21,097 nucleotides of DNA from Candidatus Geocrenenecus huangii (GTDB lineage: Archaea > Thermoproteota > Nitrososphaeria_A > Caldarchaeales > Wolframiiraptoraceae): the NCBI GenBank assembly GCA_023254095.1, contig JALNLM010000018.1:1-21097 (forward strand), given 5' to 3'. The notes under the pieces were generated by a model that had not been told where the DNA came from, searched no databases, and was given only the letters and a program-made list of their open reading frames with translations. Numbering within the stretch: the first letter of the stretch is position 1; each line of letters starts with the position of its first letter. Below are positions 5,199 to 21,097 of this stretch, in pieces. A program made the position numbers and the translations under genes.

Positions 5199-5764
5199 GA
5201 GAACATCACCTGTACGGCTTCTTCTTTTAATTCATCTGCAAACTTTTTCTCTAAAGGCCTCGGATAAAAGAATGTATAATGTATTAGCCCATTCAGCGTT
5301 ATCATGAAGAGCGTCGCTCTAATCTCACTTCTAGCTATGCCCGCATGCCTGAGTATACTCGCAATCTTATTTCTAATTTTCTCATATGATTCTTTAATAA
5401 AATCGTATCTATTGTTTTCTGCGAGGGCTCTACAAATCTCCGAGACGAATTCTAAGGAGCTCGGCTTATCCGTATTCATCTGAGCGTACTGTATCGTAAG
5501 GTCAACTAGCTGCCGAATCTTCTCTTTATCTTCGTCAGATGATGATAGAATCTGGTCCACTTTCTGCTCAATTGTTGCTAGGATATTCTTCATTACTGCT
5601 TCTGCCAGATCAATCTTTGAATTAAAGTAATGAAAGATAGCACCTTTAGAAACTCCTGCCCTCAACGCTATATCTTCTATCGATGATTTAGAGTAAGATT
5701 GTTCAGAGAATAATTCTATCGCTGCCTTTATTATAGCTTCCCTAGTGGTGGATGAACGTATCAT
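5195..5764 (-). CDS. TetR/AcrR family transcriptional regulator
   Basis: N-terminal HTH TREAIIKAAIELFSEQSYSKSSIEDIALRAGVSKGAIFHYFNSK. Start is placed at ATG 5764, about 27 nt downstream of a TATA box, not at the track's 5806. Confidence 0.92.
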   Translation of the reverse strand: MIRSSTTREAIIKAAIELFSEQSYSKSSIEDIALRAGVSKGAIFHYFNSKIDLAEAVMKNILATIEQKVDQILSSSDEDKEKIRQLVDLTIQYAQMNTDKPSSLEFVSEICRALAENNRYDFIKESYEKIRNKIASILRHAGIARSEIRATLFMITLNGLIHYTFFYPRPLEKKFADELKEEAVQVMFS

Positions 5765-5771
5765 ACCATAT

Positions 5772-5785
5772 ACCGACTGGTCGGT
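5772..5785. promoter_or_regulatory. Palindromic operator, probable TetR autoregulatory site
   Basis: Perfect inverted repeat ACCGAC-TG-GTCGGT lying between the TATA box and the tetR start codon. Confidence 0.7.
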
Positions 5786-5789
5786 CCAC

Positions 5790-5799
5790 CTTATATATC
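5790..5799 (-). promoter_or_regulatory. TATA box of the tetR-ABC operon
   Basis: Minus strand reads GATATATAAG about 27-35 nt upstream of ATG 5764, consistent with a leaderless archaeal transcript. Confidence 0.6.
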
Positions 5800-5913
5800 T
5801 TGACAAACCAACACAAAACGAAGATAAGAAGGTAAAAATAAAGAATTAATACTACCTTTGAAGAAGGAAACCTTATTCTAAAATGAGGAGATAATGTTGT
5901 AAGGGTTTGACAC

Positions 5914-6495
5914 TTGAGTGTAGAGTTAGAGCACTTACGGAAGATGGTTGAAGAATGTAGAAAATGTCCATTATGGAGGAATAGAAATAAGCCTGTATTC
6001 GGTGAAGGCCCACCTGATGCAAAGATAATGCTGATAGGCCTAGGACCAGGATATAATGAAGACCGTGAGGGGAGACCATTCGTAGGAGCTGCTGGAAAAT
6101 TCCTCAACAAGCTACTCGAGTCGTCGGGCTTGAAAAGAGAAGAAGTATACATAACGAACGTCGTTAAATGTTATCTTCCAGAGAATAGGGCTACGGATGA
6201 AGAAGTTAAAGCCTGTACACCCTACCTAGACAAACAGATAGAGCTAATAGATCCAGAATACATTATTGGGCTGGGAAACACCGCCGCCGAATACCTTTCA
6301 AAAAAGTATGGATTCGATTTCACATCCATGGAGAGAATACATGGAGTTACATTTAAGATCTCGACAATATCTAAGGAAGTTAAGATAACGGTGATGTATC
6401 ATCCAGCAGCAGGGCTGAGAAATCCACCTCTTAGAAAGATCATTGAAGAAGATTGGGGAAAGCTCCGTGGATTACTAGGTAGTAGAATTATTTAG
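5914..6495 (+). CDS. udg: Uracil-DNA glycosylase, family 4 ([4Fe-4S] type)
   Basis: CRKCPL, PVFGEG, motif A GLGPGYNEDREGRPFVG, TNVVKC...C and motif B YHPAA; four cluster-ligating cysteines are present. Confidence 0.92.
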   Translation: MSVELEHLRKMVEECRKCPLWRNRNKPVFGEGPPDAKIMLIGLGPGYNEDREGRPFVGAAGKFLNKLLESSGLKREEVYITNVVKCYLPENRATDEEVKACTPYLDKQIELIDPEYIIGLGNTAAEYLSKKYGFDFTSMERIHGVTFKISTISKEVKITVMYHPAAGLRNPPLRKIIEEDWGKLRGLLGSRII

Positions 6496-6981: not shown

Positions 6982-7284
6982 GGGCGTGCGGCGGTAGCCC
7001 TCCTTCTGTATTTAGGCGGGATTCGTCTTGTCGGTTCTTCAGGGTTCTCTCCGAAGGCAGGATCATAGAGCCCTGACCTTTCCCCACGTGGGACGCCCGT
7101 TTCAGCCACTCTCCATCTACTCGATCAGCAGCTTACCACCTGCATCATCTTCATTGTAGGTGGAGGGGTCTCGTTTCTGATGCGTTGCCCGGGGTCTCCC
7201 CCGACGCCTCACGGCGCCACGTGCCTTCATCTGGGGGAGGAACTTCCTCGGGAGTTCCCCCGTGACCCGCCCCGCCGCTCGCCC
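6982..7284 (-). ncRNA. rnpB: RNase P RNA, archaeal type A
   Basis: GC-rich island. On the minus strand: P1 GGGCGAGCGGCGG/CCGCCGCACGCCC, P2 GGCGGG/CCCGCC, CR-I GAGGAAGTTCC, P7 CACGTGG/CCACGTG, P8 GCC-GTGA-GGC, P9 CGGGG-GAGA-CCCCG, CAGAAAC and TGAAAC, P6 GAAGGC/GCCTTC, P16 CAGGG/CCCTG, and CR-V ACAGAAGGAGGGCTA. Confidence 0.96.
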
Positions 7285-7433: not shown

Positions 7434-8339
7434 CTATCGAGCGAATATTTTCCTGTAGGGTTCTACTACGTCTTTAACGAAGTCGTTGATCCCTTCTATT
7501 GTTTTGCTATGTGTTAACATTTCCTTCAATACGTAGAATGGCACGGTAACGATATCTACGCCTATCTCCGCCATCTCTCTTACTTGCCTAGCATTCCTAA
7601 TACTTGAAGCAATAACTTGGGATTTGAAACCATAATTCCTAAAAATGGTTACTATAGATTTTACGAGCTCGACGCCACTAGATATCCCGTTGTCATTTAG
7701 TTTGGATACGGCATCTTTTACTTCATTGTCTAAGTATACTTCTTTAGGCGAGCTGATGTTTTTCGAGGAAAGCGTCTTCTCGATCATTAAGGATTCAACG
7801 TTCTTCATTAAATTGAAGTTGTAGTACTCTGATTTCTGATAATCTCTGCCTCTCCTCATCCCAATCTTATCTCTAATATAGTCGTCTATCCTTCCCGCGA
7901 ACGGGCTCACATACATTGCTCCCGCCTTAGCTGCAAGGATTGCTTGTTCTGGAGACATTACGAGCGTAGCGTTTACAGGTATACTCTCGCCTGCAAGTTT
8001 CCTGATAGTTTTCAGGCCATCATATAAGTTATTTACACCATCTAGACTCGAGCAGACAGGTATCTTGATAACTACATTTCCATGCTTCCTAAACCTACTA
8101 TGTAGTAGCCTAGCTTCTTCAACCATCTTCTCGAACTCCACACTAATAACCTCTAAACTAACAGGTCCCGGAGTCAATTCAAGTATCTTCTCAATATATT
8201 CTTCCATGTTTACTGAGCCGCTTCTTTTCTCAACAGCCTGTTTAATAAGAGACGGGTTTGTGGTAACTCCGTCGATAACCCCTGCAGAGACAGCAAAACT
8301 AATCTCATCGATATCAGCCGTATCGAGGAAGATCTTCAT
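7434..8339 (-). CDS. tal: Transaldolase (TalC/MipB-type fold) with an approximately 64-aa insertion
   Basis: MKIFLDTAD, GVTTNPSLI, SLEV (Glu), VVIKIP (Schiff-base Lys), NATLV, YVSPFAGRIDD (Phe) and ASSIR. The Glu/Phe pair favours transaldolase over fructose-6-phosphate aldolase (Gln/Tyr). Start is placed at ATG 8339. Confidence 0.9.
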   Translation of the reverse strand: MKIFLDTADIDEISFAVSAGVIDGVTTNPSLIKQAVEKRSGSVNMEEYIEKILELTPGPVSLEVISVEFEKMVEEARLLHSRFRKHGNVVIKIPVCSSLDGVNNLYDGLKTIRKLAGESIPVNATLVMSPEQAILAAKAGAMYVSPFAGRIDDYIRDKIGMRRGRDYQKSEYYNFNLMKNVESLMIEKTLSSKNISSPKEVYLDNEVKDAVSKLNDNGISSGVELVKSIVTIFRNYGFKSQVIASSIRNARQVREMAEIGVDIVTVPFYVLKEMLTHSKTIEGINDFVKDVVEPYRKIFAR

Positions 8340-8429
8340 GCAATATAACGGTATTAACTCCAATTTAAGAATATCTTTATGGATAGCGTGTTATCCGCCT
8401 ATCAATCAAACTTTTGCTTAACCTTTCAG

Positions 8430-10421
8430 CTATAAAAGATTGAAATGCTGTAGAATTTTTTCAGATATTTTTTCACTTGTGAACCCGAAGTCCACCATCA
8501 GATCTTGATATGGAGCCGATTTACCAAATCTTTCAATACTAATTACTAGACCATCTTCTCCAACGTACCTATACCAGCATAGACCTCTACCAGCTTCTAT
8601 AGCAACTCTTGCAACACTTCTCGGAACAACTCTTCTTCTATAATCTTCATTTTGTAGTTCAAACAGCTCGAATGAGGCCATGTTGACTACCCTTGTCTTC
8701 ACCCCTTTTTCTTCGAGTATCTTCTTAACTTCAAGAGCTATGTGAACCTCTGAGCCTGAGGCAAGTATTAGTAGATCAGGCTCGTTACCTGAGTCTGCAA
8801 GTATGTATGCACCTTTCCTTATACTGTCAGCGGGCGGATATTTGCTTCTATCTAATACAGGTACTTTCTGCCTAGTCAGTATAATGGCGGTTGGACCATC
8901 CTTTCTTTCTATTGCTATCTCCCATGCTACTGATACTTCGTTGGGGTCGCATGGTCTGATAACCCAGAGATTAGGTATTAGCCTAAGTGATGAGAGCTGT
9001 TCTACTGGTTGATGTGTTGGGCCATCTTCTCCAACCCATACAGAATCATGGCTGAACACATAGATTACCTGTAGGTCTGCCATTGCAGCTAATCTTATCG
9101 CTGGCCGCATGTAGTCTGAGAATACTAAGAACGTACCACCGTAGGGCAGTATGCCCCCATGATACACCATTCCGTTCATTATGGCCCCCATAGCATGCTC
9201 TCTCACACCATAGTGTATATTCCTGCCTAGAGGGTTATCAGCCTGGAAATCTCCTAAACCCTGTAGATACGTGCTAGTCGATTCGAACAGGTCAGCCGAG
9301 CCACCCACCATTGTTGGGATGTATTTAGCGATTGCATTCAATACCTTGCCGCTTGCAGCTCTTGTAGCCATCCCCTCGCTGAACACTGGTAGATGCTTTT
9401 TGTATTCTTCTCCCCAATCTCTATTGAAAGATCTTAATAATAACTCTGCAAGCTCAGGATATTTTTCATTATACTTTTCAAATAATTTCCTCCATTCTGC
9501 TTCTCTCCTTAATCCCAGTTTAATCTTCTCTTCTCTATATTTCCAAACTTCTTCAGGTACGTAGAATTCTTGAAGAGACCAACTAAGTTTCTTCTTCATC
9601 TCATCCACTATTTCTTTTCCGAGAGGAGCCCCATGCGCACGACTATCGTCTTGAAGCCTACTTCCATAAGCTAGATGAGTTCTAACAGCTATAAATGAAG
9701 GTTTATCCTTTTGCTCTCTTGCATTTCTTATAGCATTCTCAATCTTTGATAAATTGTATCCATCTTCGATGTCTTGCACATACCAGCCTAGAGCGTCAAA
9801 TCTTTCTACGACGTTCTCAGACCACGCTAAAGACGTCGGCCCATCGATGGTAACCTTGTTATTATCCCAGACAACTATTAATTTACTAATTTTGAAGTGC
9901 CCAGCTAAGGCTGCTGCTTCGCTGGATACTCCCTCCATCAAGTCTCCATCGCTTGCTAAGACATACGTGTAATGGTCTATTATGTTGAATCCGTCTTTAT
10001 TGAAGTAGCTTGAAAGATACTTCTCAGCTATAGCCATGCCAACACTATTCCCGAATCCCTGCCCAAGCGGTCCAGATGTAACTTCAACTCCAGGGGTCAA
10101 CGTATTCTCAGGGTGGCCAGGAGTAATACTATCTAATCGCCTAAACCTTCTCAAGTCTTCTATAGTTACATCATAACCATTTACGAAAAGTAACGAGTAA
10201 AGCATTGCACTTGCATGACCAGCCGACAAAACGAATCTATCACGATCTATCCACTTAGGATTCTTAGGATTAAACTTCAAGAACCTATCAAAGATTATAT
10301 ACGCTATGTGAGAAGCCCCCAGAGGCATACCAGGATGACCAGATTTAGCAAACTCAACTTGATCCGCACTTAGGAATCTTATAGTATTTATTACCAATTC
10401 ATCCATATCCTTATCTTTCAT
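8430..10421 (-). CDS. tkt: Transketolase, full-length single-chain bacterial type
   Basis: SGHPGMPLG, DRDRFVLSAGHAS, TPGHPE, GPLGQG, ThDP motif SDGDLMEG...NN, GSADL, GVREHAM, GEDGPTHQP and FGKSAP; 663 aa. Confidence 0.97.
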   Translation of the reverse strand: MKDKDMDELVINTIRFLSADQVEFAKSGHPGMPLGASHIAYIIFDRFLKFNPKNPKWIDRDRFVLSAGHASAMLYSLLFVNGYDVTIEDLRRFRRLDSITPGHPENTLTPGVEVTSGPLGQGFGNSVGMAIAEKYLSSYFNKDGFNIIDHYTYVLASDGDLMEGVSSEAAALAGHFKISKLIVVWDNNKVTIDGPTSLAWSENVVERFDALGWYVQDIEDGYNLSKIENAIRNAREQKDKPSFIAVRTHLAYGSRLQDDSRAHGAPLGKEIVDEMKKKLSWSLQEFYVPEEVWKYREEKIKLGLRREAEWRKLFEKYNEKYPELAELLLRSFNRDWGEEYKKHLPVFSEGMATRAASGKVLNAIAKYIPTMVGGSADLFESTSTYLQGLGDFQADNPLGRNIHYGVREHAMGAIMNGMVYHGGILPYGGTFLVFSDYMRPAIRLAAMADLQVIYVFSHDSVWVGEDGPTHQPVEQLSSLRLIPNLWVIRPCDPNEVSVAWEIAIERKDGPTAIILTRQKVPVLDRSKYPPADSIRKGAYILADSGNEPDLLILASGSEVHIALEVKKILEEKGVKTRVVNMASFELFELQNEDYRRRVVPRSVARVAIEAGRGLCWYRYVGEDGLVISIERFGKSAPYQDLMVDFGFTSEKISEKILQHFNLL

Positions 10422-10530
10422 ATTTTTAGATCCTTAATTCTCTATGTTATATTTTAAATTATTTTTCAGTATTATCCTATACTATGTGGAAGGAAAAATA
10501 GCCATAAACATCGACAGCTGCCGATATTTA

Positions 10531-11310
10531 TTATTTTTCGATTATGTTTAAAGCTTCTTCAACTTCTTTATCTTCATGTAGGATAGCGACTAAGGCTTTT
10601 ACAACTTTCTCTGGTTTTTCATGCTGCCATATATTTCTACCGATAGTTCCACCTGTTGCACCTGCCTCCACGGCTTCTTTCAGCATCAATAAAAATTCTC
10701 TCAAGCTTTCAATCTTGGGACCACCCATTACAGTGATAGGAACAGGTGTTGATTTTACGACTTCACTGTATCTAGATGGTGGTCCAACATACGCTGTTTT
10801 AATAATATCTCCTCCAAGCTCAGCCCCAATTCTAGCAGCCTGCTTTACTTTCTCCACGTCATAGATAACTTTCCCTTTTTCATCACATGGAACAACTTCA
10901 GCCATGTAGGGCATCCCCCATTCTTCGGCTGCCAGTGAAACTCTCCATACTTTATTCATTGTCTCCCAATCAAGTGGTACGGGTCCAAAGTAAGTTGTCT
11001 TAACAGCATCGGCACCAAGTTTGACAGCGTATTCAACATATTTCTCATCGTAGGGTATCGACAAGACTAATGAAATCCTATCTTTAATCTTCTTAACAAG
11101 ATATTTACCTATAGCGGGAGTTACTAATAACGCATCAGCCCCTCCATCAATCATCTTCTTCGCTACAATCTCAATATGCTCCAGACATCTAAAATCTCCA
11201 ATCATCCCATGATCCATCGCCACGATGAGTGCTTTACCATCTTTCGAGAAAATATTCTTAAACCTGCATAACTTCCCAATACTTGAGAACTCGATTTCAA
11301 AACTTGTCAT
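10531..11310 (-). CDS. Class I aldolase, DhnA/LsrF/ADH-synthase family; substrate uncertain
   Basis: ALIVAMDHG, GADAV, AARIGAELGGDIIKT (Schiff-base Lys), MGGPK and GRNIWQH. Start is placed at ATG 11310, after an AGGTG RBS-like sequence; the track's extension to 11427 runs through promoter DNA. Confidence 0.85.
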   Translation of the reverse strand: MTSFEIEFSSIGKLCRFKNIFSKDGKALIVAMDHGMIGDFRCLEHIEIVAKKMIDGGADALLVTPAIGKYLVKKIKDRISLVLSIPYDEKYVEYAVKLGADAVKTTYFGPVPLDWETMNKVWRVSLAAEEWGMPYMAEVVPCDEKGKVIYDVEKVKQAARIGAELGGDIIKTAYVGPPSRYSEVVKSTPVPITVMGGPKIESLREFLLMLKEAVEAGATGGTIGRNIWQHEKPEKVVKALVAILHEDKEVEEALNIIEK

Positions 11311-11498
11311 CCTATAACACCTTGAGTCAAAATAGAACATCGAATCGCATAATTTAAAGATTAGCTGAAAAACCTCAAAACACAAAAAGTTCAGAAACCA
11401 TAATACCAATTGTTTTTCATCAAACAATTATCAATTTTTCTGTGAATGTATATTAGATTTGTTGAATAATGCTTATATTCTTCTCATCCGATGATTGA

Positions 11499-12632
11499 GT
11501 GATTATGAAGACTATTTCCTTCTCTGTAAATGATAAAATCCCTCCCCGAGAAGTTTGTGGATGTGGTTTTCCACATCACTACAATCTAAAAAACGTTCTA
11601 TTTGGAAACGTACTCGATTTATTAGAGCTTCTCCCTGAATTTGATATGAGTCCTCCGTATGGAGTATTTTATGATGAGATCACGTTTAAGGTATGTGGAA
11701 AGCAAGTTGTAGAGCAGCTAAACGCTGTTGAATTTAATGTAAAGTATCCAACATTTGATGAGGCGGAAACGCATTTGAGAAGAGTTAGAGATCTGAGAAC
11801 AATTATTGCCGTCGGAGGAGGTGCAGTAATCGACGTAGCCAGGTATGTAACTTACAGGGCTAAAACAACCTTTGTGGTAATCCCTACGGCTCCTTCACAA
11901 GATGGAATAGCTTCACCGAGGTCAGCTCTCTACGCTGTTTCTCCTGAGGGTGAACTGGTCTATAAAGGAACCGCTGAAGCAAAAGCTCCAGATATCGTGA
12001 TATTCGATTTAGATATCGTTTCTTCAGCACCAATCACATTGATAAGATCCGGATACGGAGACATCTTAACAAAGTTAACTTCGATCAAAGACTGGCAATT
12101 AGGAAGAGACGATCTAGGCGAACCATATTGCCCCACCGCAGAGAAACTTGCTTTAGAAGCTGTTGAATCCATAATAAATGTAGGTAGCGAATACAAGTCA
12201 GCTAACTCGATCATGAATCTATGCAAAGCTCTAATACTATCAGGGGCTGCAATGGGCATTGTAAATTCTACGAGGCCAGGAGGAGGTAGTGAGCATATGA
12301 TAGGTCGTCACCTAGAAATATACACAAAGAGAAAGTTATCTCATGGCATCGCGGCTGCGGTAGGAACCTTGCTTATGGCCTCTTTACATGAATTGAAGAA
12401 TCCAAATTGGTGGAGTGAAGAAAGATACAAGTTAAATTCTATAAGAGAACGATGTGAGAAATGGGATATTCTTAAATCATTGAAAGAAGCAAATATTCCA
12501 AGGCAGGTATTTGTAGAAGCGATCACCGAGTCTTGGAAAACTCGTCCTGAGAGATATACTATTCTCCATAAATATAAACCAGAACGTGAATTAGCCGAAC
12601 AGCTAGTCAGTTATTCAAGAATGGAGATCTAG
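11499..12632 (+). CDS. sn-glycerol-1-phosphate dehydrogenase-like protein (AraM/EgsA, DHQS/Fe-ADH superfamily), divergent
   Basis: VGGGAVIDV, IPTAPSQDGIASP, DLDIVSSAP, GYGDILTK...DW, RPGGGSEH, HG and C-terminal RPERYTIL; N-terminal CGCGFPHH. The start may instead be ATG 11505. Confidence 0.85.
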   Translation: MIMKTISFSVNDKIPPREVCGCGFPHHYNLKNVLFGNVLDLLELLPEFDMSPPYGVFYDEITFKVCGKQVVEQLNAVEFNVKYPTFDEAETHLRRVRDLRTIIAVGGGAVIDVARYVTYRAKTTFVVIPTAPSQDGIASPRSALYAVSPEGELVYKGTAEAKAPDIVIFDLDIVSSAPITLIRSGYGDILTKLTSIKDWQLGRDDLGEPYCPTAEKLALEAVESIINVGSEYKSANSIMNLCKALILSGAAMGIVNSTRPGGGSEHMIGRHLEIYTKRKLSHGIAAAVGTLLMASLHELKNPNWWSEERYKLNSIRERCEKWDILKSLKEANIPRQVFVEAITESWKTRPERYTILHKYKPERELAEQLVSYSRMEI

Positions 12633-12713
12633 GCAAGGATGTCTATAAGAATAATCATAAAAAATAACGGATAGAAAATACAAGAAAAATATAAAGAGGG
12701 TATTTGTAGTCTT

Positions 12714-14504
12714 CTACAATGGTCCTACTTTCTTGCCCATCCAACCGCTTTCTTTTAAGAAGTCGTCTATAGCTTGAGCTACGTATACAGCTATCTCTTC
12801 GCCTTTCATTCCTTTTCCGAATGCTTCCATTCCTTTGTCTCTGGCTAGAGGCAATATGTATGGGTAGACCACGCCTATATCGTTATCTGTTCCGAAGTGG
12901 CTCCTACCTGCTATCTCAGTTACTGTTACTATACCGCCCCATTCTGCATCTTTAGCTTTGAATCTGGGGTCTTGGAATGTTGACCATCTAACCGGTAATC
13001 CTACGTCTAAGTTCTTCTTTAGTTCTACAGCCTTTGATACCATGAATGAAGCGAATAAGAATGATGCTTCTTGTCTTGGGGAATATGCCGAGAGCACCCA
13101 CCCCGAGGGGTCAATGTATCCTCTAGGCTTTCTTGGATGGTAGTATGGTGCATAAGCTGGGTAGGGGGCAAATTCGAACTTTCCTCTCACGAGTGAGTCT
13201 TCAGCCGCTAAGCCTGTCGCCCAATGGAAGTAGAATGGCCACATGGTTGCATAATTACCGTCATACTTGAAAGCGTCATGAGCCTCGACAACTCCTATCT
13301 CGTAAGCTTTCTTCGGAGCATATTTTAACGAGTCTTCAAGCCACCACTTGTACATAGCTTTCCCACCCTCGCTATCTAGTCTTCCTCCATTCTTTGTACT
13401 GGCTCCTCCAATAGTATCATCCTTGACATTAATTGCCCATGGAGTTGATACTCCGTCAATGTGAGTTACCTCCAGAGGCATCTTTCCTTCTGGTGCGGGG
13501 TCGGCAAGCTGGAAGCAGTCATCTAGACCATCAGCGATATACCATCCCAACCAGTCTCCAGGTTTGACGCCGGTCACATACCCATACACTCCTTTATCCG
13601 GGTCTGTGAAGAACTCTGCTATGTCTCTTGCTTTATCTGTAGTCCAATCATCTTCTACCTTTCCAGATTTCTGTGCATCAAGGTAATACTGTCTCGGCGT
13701 CTTTAGCTCGTACCCATATCTCTTCTTGAACTCTTCCTTATTCTTCGGATCTTCAAACCAGTCTTTTCTGTAAACTGTTCCGGCGAAGGCATTGTATGCA
13801 TGAAGTGCATATAGATTTCCTTTGCTGTCGCTGTAGCTTGCTCGTAAGAAGAAGTCTTCAACATCAAAGTGAGGTGGAGTTAGCTCAGGTTTCCTCTTTA
13901 GCAAGTCCGTTATGTTAACCGCACTCTTATTATAGATATAGAATCCATTCATGTCTTGGTCTGTTCCGACTAGGTCATAGATTCCAGCTTTTAGTTTTGC
14001 ATCTTCCATGCTTTTAACAATCGTCTCCCAGTTTGACATTGATTCATACGTAAGCTTTATTCCCGTTATCTTCTCAAACCATGGACCTAAGTTCTTCTCT
14101 TCCCATACTGCACCCGGCACCGCTTCATACATTATGTGTAATGTTTGACCCCTATACGGTTTCGAAGCTCTAACGTAGTGGATCACTTCTTCCTCCAGCT
14201 GTTTCGGGGATAAGACCGTTACACCACCTATCCAATCAATCAACTGGTAGGCTGCCTTAAGATACGGTTCATCTTCAGGACCTAAACCTGGAGGATACGC
14301 AGGAGTAGTCGGAGGAGTGATGGTCGGGGTCCCGGTAACCGTAACTGTCTCTCTTACAGTCTCAGTAACTATTTTAGTCACTGTTTCTCTCGCTGCTTCT
14401 GGTTTAGCAAGATATCCTATAACTCCTCCAATGACAAGCCCAGCAATCGTTCCGCTTACAATTTTAAGAGCAGACCTTCTATCAACTTTTTCTCCGCCTG
14501 ACAT
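12714..14504 (-). CDS. glpV: ABC transporter substrate-binding protein, GlpV (glycerol)-like, with Tat signal/TM anchor and Thr/Pro linker
   Basis: VDRRSALK twin-arginine motif, hydrophobic helix and a T/P-rich linker. The core LSPKQLEEEV..YVRASKPYRG, YRKDWFEDPKNKEEFKKRYGYEL, IAEFFT and GYIDPSGW resemble the GlpV family. Partner genes lie divergently. Confidence 0.8.
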   Translation of the reverse strand: MSGGEKVDRRSALKIVSGTIAGLVIGGVIGYLAKPEAARETVTKIVTETVRETVTVTGTPTITPPTTPAYPPGLGPEDEPYLKAAYQLIDWIGGVTVLSPKQLEEEVIHYVRASKPYRGQTLHIMYEAVPGAVWEEKNLGPWFEKITGIKLTYESMSNWETIVKSMEDAKLKAGIYDLVGTDQDMNGFYIYNKSAVNITDLLKRKPELTPPHFDVEDFFLRASYSDSKGNLYALHAYNAFAGTVYRKDWFEDPKNKEEFKKRYGYELKTPRQYYLDAQKSGKVEDDWTTDKARDIAEFFTDPDKGVYGYVTGVKPGDWLGWYIADGLDDCFQLADPAPEGKMPLEVTHIDGVSTPWAINVKDDTIGGASTKNGGRLDSEGGKAMYKWWLEDSLKYAPKKAYEIGVVEAHDAFKYDGNYATMWPFYFHWATGLAAEDSLVRGKFEFAPYPAYAPYYHPRKPRGYIDPSGWVLSAYSPRQEASFLFASFMVSKAVELKKNLDVGLPVRWSTFQDPRFKAKDAEWGGIVTVTEIAGRSHFGTDNDIGVVYPYILPLARDKGMEAFGKGMKGEEIAVYVAQAIDDFLKESGWMGKKVGPL

Positions 14505-14529
14505 ATCAGCTGTAATTAAGGTTCTTGAG

Positions 14530-14544
14530 CTTAATATATTTTTC
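14530..14544 (-). promoter_or_regulatory. BRE/TATA promoter of the substrate-binding protein gene
   Basis: Minus strand reads AAAAATATATTAAG about 26-40 nt upstream of ATG 14504, i.e. leaderless spacing. Confidence 0.55.
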
Positions 14545-14919
14545 TACACAAAAAATAATTGAAGAAAGTTCAAAAAATTTGAGCTCCTAATGAAAAGTTG
14601 TTATCAAGCTTGTCCTCTTATCGTGTGTCCAGAATAGTAGAGATTTGAGGAGATGGAGAGTTCACTTTCACATGTATCCCATACAATTCGTTATCAAATT
14701 GTATACGTGTTAAGTACCATTTTCACTACTATCACTGATAGGAGAGAATACGTAGGAACAGAATTATTAAGATTCTGAAATGTTCAAGAAAGTATGAAGA
14801 GATCCGTTAACGATTAACACTCCATTCTTCAAATGTAGCACTGTAGTTCTATGCAGCGATAATATGAGTACTCGATTAATTTAAGGTTAAATACGAGGTA
14901 TGCCTCTTGAGTTAGCAGT

Positions 14920-15783
14920 ATGAAAACACAAGTGTGGCTATTATTTCCTGCACTAATATTAACAGCGTTTGTAGGCATTTTCCCGATCTTCGCTCTCGTC
15001 AACTATGCTCTCCAGACACCATTCGCTATAGAGAACAGATTTGTCGGACTAACACATTTCGGCTTTATGTTCAGGGATTATCGATTTATCGACGCCATAA
15101 CAAGAGGTATAACTTTTGCTGCAATATGCTTAGCAATAGAAATCCCACTAGGATTAGGGCTTGCATACATGCTTCGAAAACCTGGAAAAATAAATGCTGT
15201 AATCTCAGCATTAATAGCACTTCCAACATTATTCCCACCCGTAACAATAGGTATGATGTGGCTGCTAATGGCTAGAAGCAATGGTCCGATCGGAATGATC
15301 TTCAATACTATACTAACATCTATTGGAGCAGGTATTTATGACCCGTTCAGGAACCACATGCATGCATTAGGAACAGTAATTCTAATGGATGTTTGGCATT
15401 GGACAGGTTTAGTATTCTTAGTCTCTCTAGCGGCGATCTCAGGAATGGATGAGACATACGCTTTATCTGCTAGAACAGAGGGAGCTACAAGATGGCAGAT
15501 CTTTAGATACGCTGAACTGCCGCAACTGGTATTCCCATTAACGTTCGTCTCTCTTTTGAGATTGATAGATACATTAAAAATCTTTGATGAAGTATATATC
15601 TTAACTGGAGGAGGCCCAGGATTATCAACAGAATTTGTTACACAATATATTAGAACAGTTGGAATTGAGCAATGGAATGTAGGTTATGCATCTGCAGTAT
15701 CTCTTGTTTATCTTTATATCGTAATTGTTTTGTGTTGGCTCATGATCACTGTCTTGACTAGGGGCAGGGGGTTGATCGAATGA
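14920..15783 (+). CDS. glpP: Carbohydrate ABC transporter permease (GlpP-like)
   Basis: Multiple TM segments, IEIPLGL, MDVWHWT, an EAA-like loop (SARTEGATRWQIFRYAELP) and LTGGGPG. Confidence 0.85.
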   Translation: MKTQVWLLFPALILTAFVGIFPIFALVNYALQTPFAIENRFVGLTHFGFMFRDYRFIDAITRGITFAAICLAIEIPLGLGLAYMLRKPGKINAVISALIALPTLFPPVTIGMMWLLMARSNGPIGMIFNTILTSIGAGIYDPFRNHMHALGTVILMDVWHWTGLVFLVSLAAISGMDETYALSARTEGATRWQIFRYAELPQLVFPLTFVSLLRLIDTLKIFDEVYILTGGGPGLSTEFVTQYIRTVGIEQWNVGYASAVSLVYLYIVIVLCWLMITVLTRGRGLIE

Positions 15784-16595
15784 AGACTATCGGCTTTATT
15801 CTCAGAATTATCATACTCGTATTCGTTTCAGCTCTATTTATAATACCGATTTATTTTACTTTCTCCGTTTCTATCTCCTCTAAACCCAGAATAAATGAGG
15901 GCGCCATTGTTCCAGATTTCTATTTAGGACATTGGATAGAAGTAACCGGAGGTTTCGGATATTGGCGAGCAGGAATAATAAACTCTGCTATTGTCTCGTT
16001 GGCATGTATGTTAATAGCATTGTTGGTTAGCCTGCCAGCTGGGTATGTTTTTACAAGGATCAAATTTTTAGCGGATAAGCATTTATTCTTTTGGTTCCTA
16101 ACAAATAGAATGGCTCCTCCTGTTGTATTCGCAATCCCGTACCTAATGATCTGGAGAGGCTTGAAGATATGGGATACCTATACAGGTTTAATACTAGCCT
16201 ACATGGTCTTCGAAATACCTATCACTACATGGATCATCGCAAGCTTTCTTGCAGGAATTCCAAAGGAGATCGATGAAGCAGCATACATAGATGGATATAA
16301 TACATTTAGACTATTCACAAAGATTATCCTCCCACTGTTAAGACCTGCTATAGGCGTAGCCATGTTCTTCGCATGGCTATTCGCTTGGACTGACATGTTC
16401 TTCGCAAGCGTTCTAACATCAGTAAATGCAAAGACCTTACCGGCACAACTGCTTACGGCATTGGGAAAAGTAGGTTGGGGTGTAGAATACGGACCTGCAG
16501 CAGCCGCTGGATTCGTGACATTAGTTCCTGGACTAATGTTATTATATTGGGTAAGGAAGTATATCTTGCGAGGATTCATCTTCGGGAGGCTGTGA
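15780..16595 (+). CDS. glpQ: Carbohydrate ABC transporter permease (GlpQ-like)
   Basis: DKHLFFWFLTNRMAPP (characteristic of GlpQ-type permeases), EAA loop IPKEIDEAAYIDG and AAAGFVTLVPG; ATGA overlap with the upstream permease. Confidence 0.88.
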   Translation: MKTIGFILRIIILVFVSALFIIPIYFTFSVSISSKPRINEGAIVPDFYLGHWIEVTGGFGYWRAGIINSAIVSLACMLIALLVSLPAGYVFTRIKFLADKHLFFWFLTNRMAPPVVFAIPYLMIWRGLKIWDTYTGLILAYMVFEIPITTWIIASFLAGIPKEIDEAAYIDGYNTFRLFTKIILPLLRPAIGVAMFFAWLFAWTDMFFASVLTSVNAKTLPAQLLTALGKVGWGVEYGPAAAAGFVTLVPGLMLLYWVRKYILRGFIFGRL

Positions 16596-16599
16596 AAAC

Positions 16600-16914
16600 A
16601 TGACCACAGGCGTATTAGAATCATTCGAGTTATGGTTGAATGAGATGATGCCTTGGATGTATTGGAAAGGCGAAGTAGCATTATTCTTCATATTCTTCTT
16701 TTCTTTCCTGACAATCTTAGCAATCTATAATATTAAGAAGCCGTCCAATCCAAGAAGTGGAATCTTGAGGATTCCGACGACGTTAGGTGACAGGATCTTC
16801 GTCAGCGTTGTGATATTCATAGCAGTAATGTTGACTGTCGCTGCGTTAGGGTTACCATTGTATCTACTAATTATTGCGCTACCTATATTAATTATCATAC
16901 TCTTGCGGGGTTAG
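16600..16914 (+). CDS. glpU: Small integral membrane protein, DUF2160 (GlpU-like)
   Basis: WMYW...ALFF...P..PRSGILRIPTTLGDRIFVS matches the DUF2160 pattern; about 3 TM segments; directly after the GlpQ-like gene. Confidence 0.8.
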   Translation: MTTGVLESFELWLNEMMPWMYWKGEVALFFIFFFSFLTILAIYNIKKPSNPRSGILRIPTTLGDRIFVSVVIFIAVMLTVAALGLPLYLLIIALPILIIILLRG

Positions 16915-16917
16915 ACG

Positions 16918-18021
16918 ATGACCGAAATACTATTAGAAAACGTTTCAAAATACATTAAAGGCAAAACAGTATTAAATAACATAAATCTAAGAGTGCAATC
17001 GGCAGACGTAGCCGTTCTACTAGGACCAGCAGGTGCCGGAAAGACAACACTGCTCAGAATAATTGCCGGAACTGAAAAACCTGATAAAGGCAGAATATAT
17101 TTCGATGGTAAAGATGTAACTGATCTTCCACCGCAGAAAAGAGATGTTGGCATGGTTTTCCAAACCTTTGCACTATATCCAAACATGACTGTTTACGAGA
17201 ATATAGCTTCACCGCTTAGGATTCGAAAGCTCCCTGAAGCAGAGATAAACAAGAAAGTAAAAGAGGTGGCGGAACTACTCAATATAACTCACATACTGAG
17301 TAAAAAGCCTCATGAATGTAGCGGAGGCGAAGCTCAAAGAACAGTAATTGCCCGAGCAATAGTAAAGAGGCCAAAAATCTACTTATTCGATGAGCCGCTG
17401 ACTAACCTAGACTACAAAGTTAGAGAAGTCTTGAGGCTCGAATTAAAGAAAATATTTAATGAAGTCAGATCTACAGTTTTATATTCAACTTCAAACCCTG
17501 AAGAAGCCGCAGCATTGGGAAAAACCTTAATCCATATCAGAGAAGGGAGAATAATCCAGACTGGCCCTATAAAAGATTGTTTCAGAAAACCCGCTGACAT
17601 TAATGCCGCATTGTATTATTCACCGGTCGGTGTAAACATTTTCAATAGCAAATGTTTACGAGTGGATTCAAGAAAATACTTACATGTAAACAGTGTGCTG
17701 AAATTTGATGTCACCGACGTCGAGCAGGTCCAGGAAGGCAAAGAATATATGATAGGGATCTATCCTCATAGCATCAAGTTGTTTAAACTTGCCTCCGAAA
17801 ATAAACTAATAACGATCCCAATCGATGTTGACTTCGTGGAGAATATGGGATCTGAATTAGTAGTAGTCACTAAATGTGGTGAACATATTATGACCATACT
17901 CTCATCTGAAGTTGAGAGACTTCATGAAATAAAGGACCTGAAATATGCCTATGTACCTCCTAATGAAATAATGATATTCTCGAAGGATGGGGGTGAATAT
18001 CTCCAAACCCTAGAGAGGTAA
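16918..18021 (+). CDS. glpS: Carbohydrate ABC transporter ATP-binding protein (GlpS-like)
   Basis: GPAGAGKTT, CSGGEAQR and YLFDEPLTNLDYKVRE; the H-loop lacks His (YSTSNPEEA); C-terminal TOBE-like region. Confidence 0.85.
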   Translation: MTEILLENVSKYIKGKTVLNNINLRVQSADVAVLLGPAGAGKTTLLRIIAGTEKPDKGRIYFDGKDVTDLPPQKRDVGMVFQTFALYPNMTVYENIASPLRIRKLPEAEINKKVKEVAELLNITHILSKKPHECSGGEAQRTVIARAIVKRPKIYLFDEPLTNLDYKVREVLRLELKKIFNEVRSTVLYSTSNPEEAAALGKTLIHIREGRIIQTGPIKDCFRKPADINAALYYSPVGVNIFNSKCLRVDSRKYLHVNSVLKFDVTDVEQVQEGKEYMIGIYPHSIKLFKLASENKLITIPIDVDFVENMGSELVVVTKCGEHIMTILSSEVERLHEIKDLKYAYVPPNEIMIFSKDGGEYLQTLER

Positions 18022-18026
18022 AGAGC

Positions 18027-19094
18027 ATGGTAGACGTTTCTCTCGTTAATATCAGCCACTCCTACGATGGTGGAAAAACATGGGCTGTACAAGATATAAA
18101 TCTAGAGTTTGAGTCGGGAAAACGATATGCACTGTTAGGACCATCAGGTTGTGGTAAGACTACACTACTAAAAATAATCTGTGGTTTAATCAAACCTAGC
18201 AAGGGCAGAGTTTTCTTCGAAGATGTAGATGTAACAGAATATCCGCCCGAGAAAAGGAACGTCGCAATAGTTTTCCAATTCCCAGTCGTTTACAAGATGA
18301 CGGTACTAGAGAATCTGCTTTTCCCATTGATGAACGTGAAAATTTCTAAAGATGAAAAAATCAATAAAGCTAAGGAGGTGGCTAGTCTCCTAAAACTTGA
18401 AGGAATCTTGAAAGAGCCTGCTCATAGACTTGGTCCGGCTGATAGACAGAGAATCGCTATAGGAAGAGCTCTAATAAGAAATGCTGGAATTATCTTACTA
18501 GATGAGCCGATGAGCTCGATAGAGCCCGATAGAAAATACGAGATCAAGAAGCTTCTCATAGACATAAGTCGAAGCCTCAAGAGAACTATGATCTTTGTAA
18601 CCCATGACCAGACAGAAGCACTAACCTTTGGAGAAAAAATAGCAGTAATGTCGCCTAAAGGAAGATTACTACAATTTGGAAACTTCGATGAAATATATCA
18701 TAAACCATCACATGAATTCGTCGGATTCTTTATAGGATTCCCAGGAATGAATCTCATAGAAGCCGTACTAGAAAATAATTTCTTAAACTTCGGATCATTT
18801 AAGATAAGTATCAGAAAAGAAATTATACCGTTAAAAACGGGCACTCGCTTAAAGGTTGGAATACGTCCTGAACATGTAAGGGTTTCAACAGTCCAATTAG
18901 AGGGCCACATCCCATTCAAGGTAGTCTATGTAGAAGACCTTGGAAGAGGGAAATGCATACTACACCTACAGAATGATAGTATCATCATAAAGGCAATCTC
19001 TGAAAAAGAATTACCTATTCATTCGACGGCATGGGTCAAATTCCCAGAAGATTATCTAAACTTCTTCGATGAGTCAGGACAGAGGATAATGTAA
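18027..19094 (+). CDS. glpT: Carbohydrate ABC transporter ATP-binding protein (GlpT-like)
   Basis: ISHSY, YALLGPSGCGKTT, VFQFPVVY, degenerate signature LGPADRQR, LLDEP, VTHDQTEALTF and FIGFPGMN. Confidence 0.85.
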   Translation: MVDVSLVNISHSYDGGKTWAVQDINLEFESGKRYALLGPSGCGKTTLLKIICGLIKPSKGRVFFEDVDVTEYPPEKRNVAIVFQFPVVYKMTVLENLLFPLMNVKISKDEKINKAKEVASLLKLEGILKEPAHRLGPADRQRIAIGRALIRNAGIILLDEPMSSIEPDRKYEIKKLLIDISRSLKRTMIFVTHDQTEALTFGEKIAVMSPKGRLLQFGNFDEIYHKPSHEFVGFFIGFPGMNLIEAVLENNFLNFGSFKISIRKEIIPLKTGTRLKVGIRPEHVRVSTVQLEGHIPFKVVYVEDLGRGKCILHLQNDSIIIKAISEKELPIHSTAWVKFPEDYLNFFDESGQRIM

Positions 19095-19095
19095 C

Positions 19096-20325
19096 TTGAA
19101 GATACCGCTAATCGCCGTCATTGGACTAGGCAAGATGGGGGAAGCACTGGTACACCATATAAGGAAAACGAATCATAGGTTGACCATCGCAATTGAAGTA
19201 AACCTAACAAGAGGAAAAGAAGTTCTGAGTAGAGCTGGGATAAAGTATGCAGTCGCCAACAATGTTGAAGATGCTCGCCAGATATCGGAAAGAGGAGAAA
19301 CCATCCTCACGGATAGCATAGACCTCGCATTTGAATTGGACGATGTAAACGTTATAATAGACGCTACTGGAAATATAGATGCTGGGGCATACATTGCATG
19401 GAAGTGCATTAATATAAAGAAAAACATAGTTATGCTGAACGCAGAGTTAGATGCTACTATAGGGCCGATATTATCAAAGATTGCTAGATCAGCTGGAATA
19501 ATCTATACAGGCGATATAGGAGATGAGCCAGGTTCAATAATGTATTATCTCTACAGACCCCTAAAGGAAATAGGACTAGAAATACTCGTGGCAGGTAAAG
19601 GAAAAAACAACCCTCTCAACCCACATGCAACTCCATCATCTCTGAAAGAAATGAGCGAAAAATTAAAACTTAATCCGAGAATCTTAACATCTTTCGTAGA
19701 TGGTACAAAGACCATGGTTGAAATGACTATACTCTCTAATGCGACAGGACTTCTTCCAGACGTAAGGGGGATGCATGGTCCAGTCGCCGATTTAAAAGAC
19801 CTGGCGAAACTATTTCGAACAAAAAATGAAGGTGGCATATTGAATAATCTACACGTAGTTGATTACGTTATAGGGATAGCCCCGGGAGTATTCGTAATAG
19901 CAACAACAGATGATGAAGCAATAATGGAAAATCTCCGATATCTGAAAGTAGGGGACGGCCCCAACTTTCTCTTCTACAGACCATACCATCTACCAGGCTC
20001 CGAAACATTATTATCCGCGGTTAAAGCAGTATGTGAAAACGAAGCTGTAATTCAGCCGATTGGATACTTTAGTGAAACCGTAGCAGTTGCTAAACGGGAC
20101 CTGAACTCTGGAGAAAGAATAGATGGAATAGGTGGAGATACTGTTTACGGTATAATAGAAAGAAGAACCATAACTTCAGCTGAGGGTCTCTTACCTATAG
20201 GTCTCTCCGAGTCAGCCACTCTGAAAAGGAGTGTCAGAAAAGACGAGGTACTAACCTTCGATGATGTAGAAATACCGGACAAGCTGGTACACGCTCTCTG
20301 GAGATTACAGCAAAAGTCCCTATAA
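19096..20325 (+). CDS. NAD(P)-dependent oxidoreductase with C-terminal SAF domain (COG4091, homoserine dehydrogenase-like)
   Basis: Rossmann GLGKMG, IIDATG, NAELDATIGP, GDEPG, AGKGKNNP, FVDGTKTMVEM, YRPYHL and SAF region AVAKRDLNSGERIDGIGG...LPIGL. The TTG start lies 1 nt after the preceding stop. Confidence 0.88.
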   Translation: MKIPLIAVIGLGKMGEALVHHIRKTNHRLTIAIEVNLTRGKEVLSRAGIKYAVANNVEDARQISERGETILTDSIDLAFELDDVNVIIDATGNIDAGAYIAWKCINIKKNIVMLNAELDATIGPILSKIARSAGIIYTGDIGDEPGSIMYYLYRPLKEIGLEILVAGKGKNNPLNPHATPSSLKEMSEKLKLNPRILTSFVDGTKTMVEMTILSNATGLLPDVRGMHGPVADLKDLAKLFRTKNEGGILNNLHVVDYVIGIAPGVFVIATTDDEAIMENLRYLKVGDGPNFLFYRPYHLPGSETLLSAVKAVCENEAVIQPIGYFSETVAVAKRDLNSGERIDGIGGDTVYGIIERRTITSAEGLLPIGLSESATLKRSVRKDEVLTFDDVEIPDKLVHALWRLQQKSL

Positions 20326-20423
20326 TAAACAACATGCTTCCAAGCAAGACCTTCACACTTTAAAGAGATATAGTCTACCTCGATATTTCAAAATTTATTT
20401 GTTCCTCTATAAGATAGACAACT

Positions 20424-20933
20424 CTAGTATCCTAACAGATGCCTCCATCGAAATACGGTTGGAGCTTTATATGACCTCAGAACAGCATAATCAAACTTCT
20501 TCCTTATTAGTGATGAGTAAAACCAATCAGTTGCACGGAGAAGCTCGAATCTGTAAAATGTATCTATATCCTTGAAAACATTCTCTAGATGCTTCATTTT
20601 ACTTAAATGATAGTCTCTCGCATATTTACTCTCAATCTCTAAATAAGGATCTTTCAATTTTTGTAGTAAAAGCTTTCTCAATAGCTCATTACTTTTACAA
20701 TAATATATCGCAAAAGTCATTTCGTAGATTCTATCAACTTTTAATTTCTCAATATTTACATAAGATGAAACATCCGCAATGAACATCATTTCATCTCTAG
20801 GAACAAAAACGACGACTTCTTTTCTACGAGGGTCCACCTGTACCAGATATCCATAAGTCTTGAAATATTTTAGGAATTTCCAGTCAATATTAGAAAGATC
20901 GTAACTCTTCTTCGTAGTGCGCTCACTTTCCAC
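20424..20933 (-). CDS. Hypothetical protein
   Basis: 169-aa ORF filling the gap, with a GTG start preceded by GAAGGA and co-oriented with the upstream kinase; no family recognised. Confidence 0.65.
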   Translation of the reverse strand: MESERTTKKSYDLSNIDWKFLKYFKTYGYLVQVDPRRKEVVVFVPRDEMMFIADVSSYVNIEKLKVDRIYEMTFAIYYCKSNELLRKLLLQKLKDPYLEIESKYARDYHLSKMKHLENVFKDIDTFYRFELLRATDWFYSSLIRKKFDYAVLRSYKAPTVFRWRHLLGY

Positions 20934-20972
20934 AATCCTTCTACCCGACTCTAGTTTGTCATTATTCTTATT

Positions 20973-21097
20973 TTAGGTTTGTGTTAGTTTGTGCATGTTT
21001 TCTCTTAGTTTTGGGTATAGTTCTAGGTATATCTTGTATAGTTGATTGTATCTCTCTATGTTCTCCGGGTTCGGTCTTGTCTCCTCGTCTACTTCTA
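20973..21097 (-). CDS. 3' end (partial) of an FGGY-family carbohydrate kinase (xylulokinase-like)
   Basis: Not in the ORF track. The minus strand reads EVDEETRPNPENIERYNQLYKIYLELYPKLRENMHKLTQT-stop, the typical P..EN...Y..LY..Y..LY..L C-terminal helix of FGGY kinases. Confidence 0.7.
   Translation of the reverse strand, partial: EVDEETRPNPENIERYNQLYKIYLELYPKLRENMHKLTQT

Follow-up and report, generated by a model that had tools for sequence, protein, structure and literature searches.

The window analysed here is a whole contig of 21,097 nucleotides (C7; JALNLM010000018.1) from the 1.6-Mb, 96% complete assembly of the hot-spring archaeon Candidatus Geocrenenecus huangii, and from position 10531 to the contig end it carries a module for the uptake and catabolism of a small polyol. 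In this module, a Glp-type ATP-binding cassette (ABC) importer is joined to an oxidoreductase of the DXR-II/DRL type, an atypical class I aldolase, a paralogue of glycerol-1-phosphate dehydrogenase (G1PDH) and an FGGY kinase, and the set is co-conserved in other archaea. As a tentative reading, in which our confidence is somewhat less than even, the module would serve the catabolism of a 2-C-methyl-D-erythritol-type polyol (or a close erythritol-type analogue), with the DXR reaction run backwards. An initial annotation of the same DNA had treated positions 7434–21097 as one pathway leading into transketolase (Tkt) and transaldolase (Tal). The uptake and catabolic unit that it proposed is real; the block itself is composite, since Tkt–Tal (7434–10421) is an inherited housekeeping pair bordering a variable carbohydrate region.

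Layout and recurrence of the module

Genes were called from a list of open reading frames (ORFs) and from Pfam and NCBIfam profile searches of the window proteins. All genes named in the initial annotation were present in its block of about 13.7 kb, and both intergenic regions in which it had placed divergent promoters exist (11311/11428–11498 and 14505–14919). Across eight intergenic regions, the search for a shared operator returned just two AT-rich 11-mers, which likely occur by chance. The statement that every recognisable gene handles sugars or polyols held for the named genes and not for hyp169, a 169-aa ORF of no known family (20424–20933, minus strand) that is not recognisable as a sugar gene. 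The FGGY kinase is present but is represented by its last 40 codons only (20973–21095, minus strand), being truncated at the contig end.

The importer genes and the oxidoreductase gene (hereafter DRL) occupy 14920–20325 on the plus strand, with neighbours separated or overlapped by 1–5 bases. They encode two ABC permeases (Perm1, 14920–15783, and Perm2, 15780–16595; PF00528 both), a small DUF2160 membrane protein in the GlpU position (16600–16914; PF09928, 61.8 bits), two ABC ATPases (16918–18021 and 18027–19094; PF00005, best NCBIfam matches UgpC-like at 277.9 and 254.9 bits, both below cut-off) and the DRL_cat plus SAF oxidoreductase (19096–20325; PF21135, 195.5 bits, and PF08666, 29.7 bits). 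The last of these begins 1 base past the ATPase stop codon and, as the final gene of the operon, is translationally coupled to the importer. Hyp169 and the FGGY tail converge on this operon from the minus strand. To its left lie the gene of a 596-aa substrate-binding protein (SBP) in the GlpV position (12714–14504, minus strand), a G1PDH-like Fe-ADH_2 gene (11499–12632, plus strand; NF002022, 216.9 bits vs. a cut-off of 413) and a DeoC/DhnA class I aldolase gene (10531–11427, minus strand; PF01791, 114 bits), which probably starts at the ATG at 11310 and would then code over 10531–11310.

The 596-aa protein had no Pfam match and, judged by homology, is the binding protein of the importer: it was 27% identical, over 83% of the length, to its 574-aa counterpart in the glp cluster of Rhizobium etli, matched PDB 5iai ('sugar ABC transporter', E 5e-6) and was 76–86% identical (BLAST or HMMER) in G010, G038, G043 and L033. 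The Glp-type importer proposed in the initial annotation was thus borne out in its six-part architecture. As in rhizobial GlpSTPQUV (R. etli p42b, NC_007763.1), the ATPases and the permeases number two each and are joined by a DUF2160 protein and a large binding protein (approximately 575–600 aa). The R. etli cluster is ordered glpD-ATPase-ATPase-permease-permease-DUF2160-SBP-glpK, however, and the order in the window differs; the binding protein is just 27% identical, and the window holds neither glpD nor a GlpK-type kinase gene, so that the importer is coupled to DXR-II, the atypical aldolase and the G1PDH paralogue instead of to glpD/glpK. The absence of GlpD, already remarked in the initial annotation, was confirmed by Pfam scans of the window; the rest of the genome was not searched for GlpD. 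A literature search on DUF2160 and GlpSTPQUV yielded nothing relevant.

Conservation of the gene neighbourhood, which the initial annotation had named as a check, was found: the set recurs in two other Caldarchaeales genomes, in one archaeal metagenome-assembled genome (MAG) and on at least seven contigs from hot-spring metagenomes. In G038 and G043, from another family of the order, the arrangement is radical SAM (rSAM) / Zn-dependent alcohol dehydrogenase (Zn-ADH)-FGGY-hyp169, converging on SBP-aldolase-Perm1-Perm2-DUF2160-ATPase1-ATPase2-DRL, with per-protein identities to the window of 45–82%; the permeases are 73–82% identical, and hyp169 orthologues stand in the same position (45% and 61% identity). 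The archaeal MAG locus L033 and the loci L121, L126 and L127 carry aldolase-G1PDH paralogue-SBP-rSAM-Perm1-Perm2-DUF2160-ATPase1-ATPase2-DRL on one strand, and L124 and L125 have the same order with the start missing. Further variants were seen in the metagenome loci L120, L130 and L131. A 5.4-kb contig (L119) is 100% identical to the window and ends at the same point, and a 3.8-kb contig of G010 encodes the aldolase (63%) together with the binding protein (86%). In the module loci, DRL invariably closes the importer operon, to which it is tightly coupled. Because the gene set recurs in order across these loci, its grouping is more than chance.

The module is patchily distributed. DRL was matched in 7 of 76 genomes in a class-level search (the same 76 as make up the order sample) and DUF2160 in 6 of the 76, five of them above cut-off. 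Within the genus, six of the seven other members had no match to DRL, and none of the seven had one to DUF2160. Identity of the binding protein reaches 86% in a different genus and 78% in a different family, a cross-family level (78–86%) equal to that of Tkt within the genus. This combination of patchy DRL and DUF2160 distribution with high binding-protein identity across families points to horizontal spread, and the module is probably mobile.

Two accessory genes accompany it. A B12-radical-SAM gene (TIGR04190, 'Ta0216'-like, 373–401 bits, below cut-off) occurs in ten related archaeal module loci (L008, L029, L033, L121, L124–L127, L131 and L132), for instance at L008:4520-6181, L029:1173-2825 and L033:3959-5659. 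The only rSAM homologue elsewhere in the host assembly (C3:869-2234, on a 5.3-kb contig) was considered as a lost flank of the window and rejected, as it showed 42–45% identity, was spread over two frames and had no adjoining kinase. Hyp169 had no match in Pfam, NCBIfam or its neighbours, and a protein atlas gave only unnamed archaeal clusters. Downstream of the module, L125 encodes (14572–16479) a 635-aa protein in which a nucleotidyltransferase is fused to a CDP-alcohol phosphatidyltransferase, an architecture shared with synthases of polyol-phosphate solutes or lipid head groups.

Transcript data, also proposed as a check in the initial annotation, gave a weak hint only of expression in situ. 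In each of two metatranscriptome runs from one study, a contig spanned the whole binding-protein gene (12722–14487 and 12810–14495). Short contigs fell on Tal and on genes for the aldolase, a permease and the ATPases, and one of the runs also had such a contig on the oxidoreductase gene; neither levels nor strands can be read from these contigs, contig depth cannot rank the genes, and uncovered parts prove nothing.

The oxidoreductase, aldolase, G1PDH paralogue and kinase

The oxidoreductase, which had been listed as being of unknown function, is by its sequence a DXR-II/DRL-type enzyme, with interconversion of DXP (1-deoxy-D-xylulose 5-phosphate) and MEP (2-C-methyl-D-erythritol 4-phosphate) as its putative activity. 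It has the domain pair of the family, DRL_cat followed by a C-terminal SAF domain, and matched the Brucella DRL structures (PDB 3UPY/3UPL) at E 2.2e-72. In a HMMER alignment to 3UPY, seven of eight signature residues were kept (G121, K191, K193, T229, H250, R320 and Y322 in Brucella numbering). These seven are common to five of the six other archaeal copies, the exception being the copy of G040, which looks DLO-like, and the signature is nearly universal in an alignment of 83 clade members. As described in PMC3847144, K191, K193 and T229 are anchors for fosmidomycin and the substrate, and T229, H250 and G121 belong to the positions that set DXR-II apart from DLO1 and DLO2, two uncharacterised families; the window DRL thus resembles DXR-II/DRL of Brucella abortus in its domains, anchors and clade markers. 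It differs in residing in an archaeal host without the rest of the MEP pathway, in being the last cistron of a polyol ABC-importer operon and in carrying Phe in place of V351. In the phylogenetic tree, the archaeal DRL copies formed a clade (SH-aLRT 99), within which the four ABC-linked copies formed a subclade (SH-aLRT 100).

Activity has been reported by complementation for eleven DXR-II members, and members occur in bacteria that have the mevalonate pathway only or no pathway (PMC3847144). This scattered occurrence is left unexplained in the available parts of PMC3847144 and of a 2026 review (PMC13001223). In the host genome, 96% complete, no match to IspG, IspH or IspF was found, which excludes a role of this DRL in isoprenoid synthesis. 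The idea that ApnO (D-apionate oxidoisomerase) belongs to the DRL family was rejected, as the accessible text of a 2026 paper gives it a fold resembling the one in ketol-acid reductoisomerase (KARI) and mentions neither DXR nor SAF.

The context of the DRL clade in other genomes was surveyed at 80 loci (79 labelled bacterial; DRL proteins 40–48% identical) by inspecting ORFs within 7 kb of DRL; many contigs are short, and the counts are lower bounds. Glucitol-type phosphotransferase system (PTS) genes were found at 45 of the 80 loci, usually in the order SorC-GutM-EIIC-EIIBC-EIIA-DRL. E1/E2 genes resembling those of pyruvate dehydrogenase (PDH) or acetoin dehydrogenase were found at 29, including 24 with PTS genes as well; Zn-ADH, DRL and FGGY occurred together without PTS at six, and none of these sets at 22. 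Seven loci carried paralogues of the IspD family (PF01128, 215.7 bits), for which IspD enzymes are the best relatives of solved structure, followed at a small distance by TarI. Among archaea, G017 has DRL-E1a-E1b-E2 with FGGY kinases and Zn-ADHs. The surveyed taxa overlap the DXR-II carriers named in PMC3847144, e.g., Tepidanaerobacter, Halanaerobium and Listeria.

The window module is like the bacterial glucitol-type PTS/DXR-II/E1-E2-E3 operons in that the same clade is coupled to a polyol importer and a C–C cleaving system. Unlike them, it has an ABC importer and an FGGY kinase in place of the PTS, and cleavage would fall to a Tyr-less class I aldolase with the G1PDH paralogue (or Zn-ADH) and not to a complex dependent on thiamine pyrophosphate (TPP) and lipoyl groups; its relatives add the B12-radical-SAM protein. 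A sorbitol PTS in Salmonella was reportedly found by Testa in 2004 to import methylerythritol. As a separate observation, a protein of approximately 110 aa that contains CxxC pairs and falls in no Pfam family was encoded within 7 kb of DRL at 16 of the 80 loci, often next downstream (L036, L044, L050, L051, L053, L054, L056, L073, L099–L101 and others), and directly after the IspD-family paralogue in L050, L099, L100 and L101.

The module aldolase was aligned to MJ0400, Thermoproteus tenax fructose-1,6-bisphosphate aldolase (FBPA) and LsrF, and its seven module-linked copies were compared with the second aldolase paralogue of the genome (on C5). The Schiff-base Lys is kept in all seven ('GGDIIKTAY', aligned with 'GADIVKTSY' of MJ0400). 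The catalytic Tyr of the 'YPRG' motif, which we take to be Y146 of T. tenax FBPA and Y153 of MJ0400, is replaced by Val in all seven ('EVVPCDEKG'), and the C5 paralogue is canonical ('MMYPRGE'). The non-canonical active site suspected in the initial annotation is thereby confirmed. All seven copies also share a deletion of approximately 10 residues and an 'AVKTTYFG' motif. In fold family and Schiff-base Lys the module aldolase is like MJ0400, an ADH synthase (2-amino-3,7-dideoxy-D-threo-hept-6-ulosonate synthase), and LsrF, which belong to the DhnA class I family; unlike MJ0400 it lacks the Tyr, and in this it resembles LsrF. It nevertheless forms a clade of its own below the cut-offs of both families, with ADH synthase as the best NCBIfam match (197.6 bits, cut-off 241). 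The members of the DhnA family that are not fructose-bisphosphate aldolases, ADH synthase and LsrF, both act on sugar phosphates bearing a CH3-CO group, and LsrF is a CoA-dependent thiolase of autoinducer-2 breakdown.

The G1PDH-like gene, by sequence comparison, is a dedicated paralogue of the module. It is 44% identical to the housekeeping G1PDH on C20, which scores 269.8 bits with NF002022, and its identity to housekeeping-type copies is 41–49% in closer relatives and 30–36% in distant ones. The best match among 40 relatives reached 49%, vs. 58–60% for the copies that stand beside the aldolase and binding-protein genes in L033, L121, L125, L126 and L127; the enzyme noted as G1PDH-like in the initial annotation is thus confirmed as part of the module. 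It belongs to the same family as archaeal EgsA and keeps the GGxVIDV, DGIxSP, GSEH and PHG motifs. Unlike EgsA, it is a second genome copy found solely beside the module; it has a clade-specific 6-residue insertion, and its profile score and identities do not place it as an orthologue of the housekeeping enzyme.

Of the kinase, the tail in the window is 54% identical over 37 aa to the C-terminus of the FGGY protein of G038. This orthologue scored 333.7 bits with the XylB model (cut-off 380) and 207 bits with GlpK models, which classes the kinase, as far as profile scores can, as XylB-like and not GlpK-like; a secondary match was to autoinducer-2 kinase (173.8 bits). No FGGY_C match that could represent the rest of the kinase was found elsewhere in the assembly. 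The last 127 bases of the window (20971–21097) lie on a separate contig in independent DNA runs, at approximately twice the depth and with other sequence before 20971, which indicates that the contig broke in a stretch common to another context or strain.

Candidate substrates and routes

The substrate, the direction of the DXR-II reaction, the kinase step and both downstream steps of the favoured methylerythritol route are inferred from homology and gene context only. In this route, 2-C-methyl-D-erythritol would be imported by the Glp-architecture ABC system and phosphorylated to MEP by the XylB-like FGGY kinase, and DXR-II, working backwards, would convert MEP to DXP. The C4 hydroxyl of DXP, which adjoins the CH2-O-phosphate, could then be oxidised by the G1PDH paralogue to 3-hydroxy-2,4-pentanedione 5-phosphate, with Zn-ADH as a stand-in oxidant in relatives without the paralogue. 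Finally, the Tyr-less DhnA-family enzyme, acting like LsrF and with CoA, would release dihydroxyacetone phosphate (DHAP) and acetyl-CoA. In the bacterial counterpart, the E1/E2/E3 complex would cut DXP to acetyl-CoA and glyceraldehyde 3-phosphate (GAP). XylB acts on deoxyxylulose, and the carbon beside the phosphate ester in D-sugar phosphates has, on stereochemical reasoning, the configuration of sn-glycerol 1-phosphate. Since G038 has the full module and no Tkt or Tal match, the products would enter metabolism as C3 and C2 units, which fits DHAP and acetyl-CoA. The fuller scenario, in which archaea with the mevalonate pathway only live on 2-C-methyl-D-erythritol from bacterial neighbours through precisely this sequence of ABC uptake, XylB-like kinase, reverse DXR-II, G1PDH paralogue and LsrF-like cleavage, is more doubtful than the general reading.

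No paper describing such a pathway was found in a literature search on methylerythritol catabolism, utilisation or degradation. DXR-II has so far been treated only as an alternative enzyme of isoprenoid synthesis, and the joining of a DXR-II-type gene to a polyol importer, in an archaeal host that lacks the MEP pathway, constitutes a clean natural case of a non-biosynthetic role. If correct, the methylerythritol route would be a new way of breaking down a polyol that is abundant in microbes and plants, would add reactions to the G1PDH and DhnA aldolase families, and would imply cross-feeding between bacteria and Caldarchaeales in hot springs. It would also represent a second, TPP-independent solution to the cleavage, vs. 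the acetoin-dehydrogenase-like complex seemingly used by bacteria, and would account for the scatter of DXR-II among organisms whose biosynthesis has no need of it. Since the five proteins are all small and soluble, the route is directly testable in vitro.

Several points weigh against this reading. The equilibrium of DXR favours MEP, so reversal needs removal of the product. The B12-radical-SAM protein of the ten loci and hyp169 have no role in the scheme, and the Zn-ADH encoded next to the kinase in G038 and G043 figures in it as a stand-in only. The aldolase scored below every NCBIfam cut-off, and the LsrF model gave 122 bits vs. a cut-off of 297. No FGGY kinase was found in L125 within 10 kb downstream of DRL, and some versions of the module may take up a compound that is already phosphorylated or rely on a kinase gene located elsewhere. 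The signature residue V351, conserved in most DXR-II proteins, is Phe in the window DRL, as in three other archaeal copies; Val is found in just 40 of the 83 clade members. The distant variant L131 adds triosephosphate isomerase (TIM) and RpiB genes, as in erythritol pathways, and DRL lies near Tkt or Tal in G004, L052, L054, L087 and L096, which would suit a product of the pentose phosphate pathway.

These last two points bear on an unmethylated tetritol (erythritol or threitol) as substrate, an alternative that we regard as rather unlikely. Here the kinase would yield erythritol 4-phosphate and the DXR-II-type enzyme erythrose 4-phosphate or erythrulose 4-phosphate; on another branch, the G1PDH paralogue would give erythrulose 1-phosphate and the aldolase DHAP and formaldehyde, and Tkt/Tal, where present, would take up erythrose 4-phosphate. 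The Brucella erythritol pathway has isomerases of the TIM and RpiB types, as carried by L131, and DRL lies beside Tkt–Tal in G000 and G004, besides its proximity to either gene in L052, L054, L087 and L096. Since MEP is erythritol 4-phosphate with a methyl group, the proposal fits the only activity known for the family (PMC3847144). It is weakened by G038, with its full module and no Tkt/Tal match, by the lack of TIM and RpiB genes in the window and in the annotated parts of the G038 and G043 loci, and by the full retention of DXR-II-specific residues; moreover, the E1/E2 complexes and IspD paralogues beside the bacterial clade members fit a methyl-ketone or MEP intermediate better.

The version of the initial annotation, that a linear C3–C6 polyol is imported and undergoes oxidation and phosphorylation and that the aldolase cleaves or condenses the product before it passes into Tkt/Tal, with the SAF oxidoreductase as a generic polyol (phosphate) dehydrogenase, must likewise be considered improbable, if not to be neglected. 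It accords with the sugar- or polyol-related nature of the genes, with the six loci that combine Zn-ADH, DRL and FGGY, with the place of SrlD being taken by DRL in glucitol-type PTS operons and with the pentose-type genes always found to the right of Tkt within the genus. Yet Tkt/Tal are not co-conserved with the module and had no match in G038, and the DXR-II active site, the Tyr-less aldolase and the G1PDH paralogue are left without a reason. Apiitol, the hydroxymethyl analogue, whose 4-phosphate would be converted to xylulose 5-phosphate, ranks below the methyl version of the substrate because G038 is without Tkt and Tal.

A biosynthetic or salvage role is very unlikely. Through the B12-radical-SAM protein, a DXR-type rearrangement and the G1PDH paralogue, an imported precursor would become a polyol phosphate, branched or otherwise modified, that serves lipids or the cell envelope; the B12-radical-SAM gene in the ten archaeal loci, the membership of G1PDH in a lipid-backbone enzyme family and the IspD-type cytidylyltransferases in some bacterial operons of the DRL clade could be accommodated in this way. 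The patchy, accessory distribution (7 of 76 genomes) does not suit such a role, genes for an aldolase and a kinase next to those of an importer usually signify catabolism, and Pfam scans of the window showed no gene for lipid synthesis.

Uptake of glycerol or a glycerophospho-compound, as by rhizobial GlpSTPQUV and with the G1PDH paralogue replacing GlpD, has scarcely any probability left. In its favour, the importer shares its six components with the R. etli glp cluster, UgpC is the best-scoring model for the ATPases and the G1PDH family acts on glycerol phosphate. Since the kinase orthologue is XylB-like (333.7 bits vs. 207 with GlpK), glycerol, which the initial annotation had listed among the possible substrates, is an unlikely one; the binding protein is also only 27% identical to its rhizobial counterpart, neither the aldolase nor the DXR-II enzyme would be needed, and the G038 and G043 modules do without the G1PDH paralogue. 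Phospho-4,5-dihydroxy-2,3-pentanedione (phospho-DPD), DXP and the substrate of LsrF differ, on chemical reasoning, solely in redox state. Lsr-like scavenging of DPD (the autoinducer-2 precursor) or a related 1-deoxy-pentose, with the FGGY protein as LsrK and the aldolase, Tyr-less like LsrF, in the place of LsrF, is nonetheless highly improbable despite the secondary autoinducer-2 kinase match, as the scores fall far under the cut-offs (LsrK 173.8 vs. 528 bits, LsrF 122 vs. 297), Pfam scans of the window showed no LsrG-type gene and the importer comes from another family than LsrACDB.

Transketolase–transaldolase and the left part of the window

Tkt (8430–10421, minus strand) is a full-length bacterial-type transketolase (TIGR00232, 857.8 bits vs. 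a cut-off of 682), and the Tal/FSA-family gene (7434–8363, minus strand; PF00923, 181 bits, in two stretches) probably has its true start at the ATG at 8339, inside the called ORF. A profile search of the genome showed both to be single copies. Tkt was found at 76–85% identity in six of the seven other genomes of the genus (g1) and in five of the six of the sister genus (g2), whether or not the module is present, with 82–85% within the genus; altogether 16 of 41 genomes were matched, and the other genera had no match or weak or split-type matches. Tal is 75–86% identical in the relatives within the genus. In G005, the whole stretch of GPN-GTPase, FtsX, CARDB protein, ABC ATPase, TetR, uracil-DNA glycosylase (UDG), RNase P RNA, Tal and Tkt is syntenic with the window, and the RNase P–Tal–Tkt part of this synteny was also seen in G003, G007 and G001. 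The right flank of Tkt differs from relative to relative, holding a class II aldolase/epimerase, FGGY kinases, Zn-ADHs or other ABC systems. Conversely, G038 (95% complete), with its full module, had no Transketolase_N and no TAL_FSA match, G010 had no Tkt or Tal match, and G043 and G017 had weak Transketolase_N matches only, that of G017 overlying the E1-alpha gene beside DRL. Tkt and Tal are thus not co-conserved with the import and catabolic genes, and their inclusion in that unit, as the end point of the pathway, is not supported: they are the vertically inherited sole copies of the genome.

Within the order, full-length bacterial-type Tkt was found only in the genera g1 and g2, and genus g5 has a split or divergent type at 30–40% identity, which suggests that the bacterial-type enzyme of this archaeal host is an old acquisition. 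The Tal/FSA protein, at approximately 300 aa vs. the usual 215 or so, contains an insertion of approximately 90 residues (roughly residues 170–255) that splits its Pfam and TIGR00875 matches and is retained in the genus relatives. Beside Tkt–Tal in G004, a different island was found (L010, G004:C19 6269-16716), in which a DXR-II-type gene has a XylB-like kinase on each side and is accompanied by a RuBisCO-family gene of form-III-like type and a class II aldolase/epimerase.

In the remaining part of the window, a 136-aa ORF without a family match (5742–6152, minus strand) overlaps the UDG gene on the opposite strand and is probably no gene. Positions 1239–5806 (minus strand) hold a set of genes, all in one direction, for a TetR regulator, an ABC ATPase, a CARDB/NPCBM_assoc surface protein of 671 aa and a permease of the MacB/FtsX type; the set is syntenic in G005. 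The archaeal RNase P RNA (6984–7282, minus strand; RF00373, 172 bits) lies between UDG and Tal in four genus relatives as well and was very abundant in the two RNA runs.

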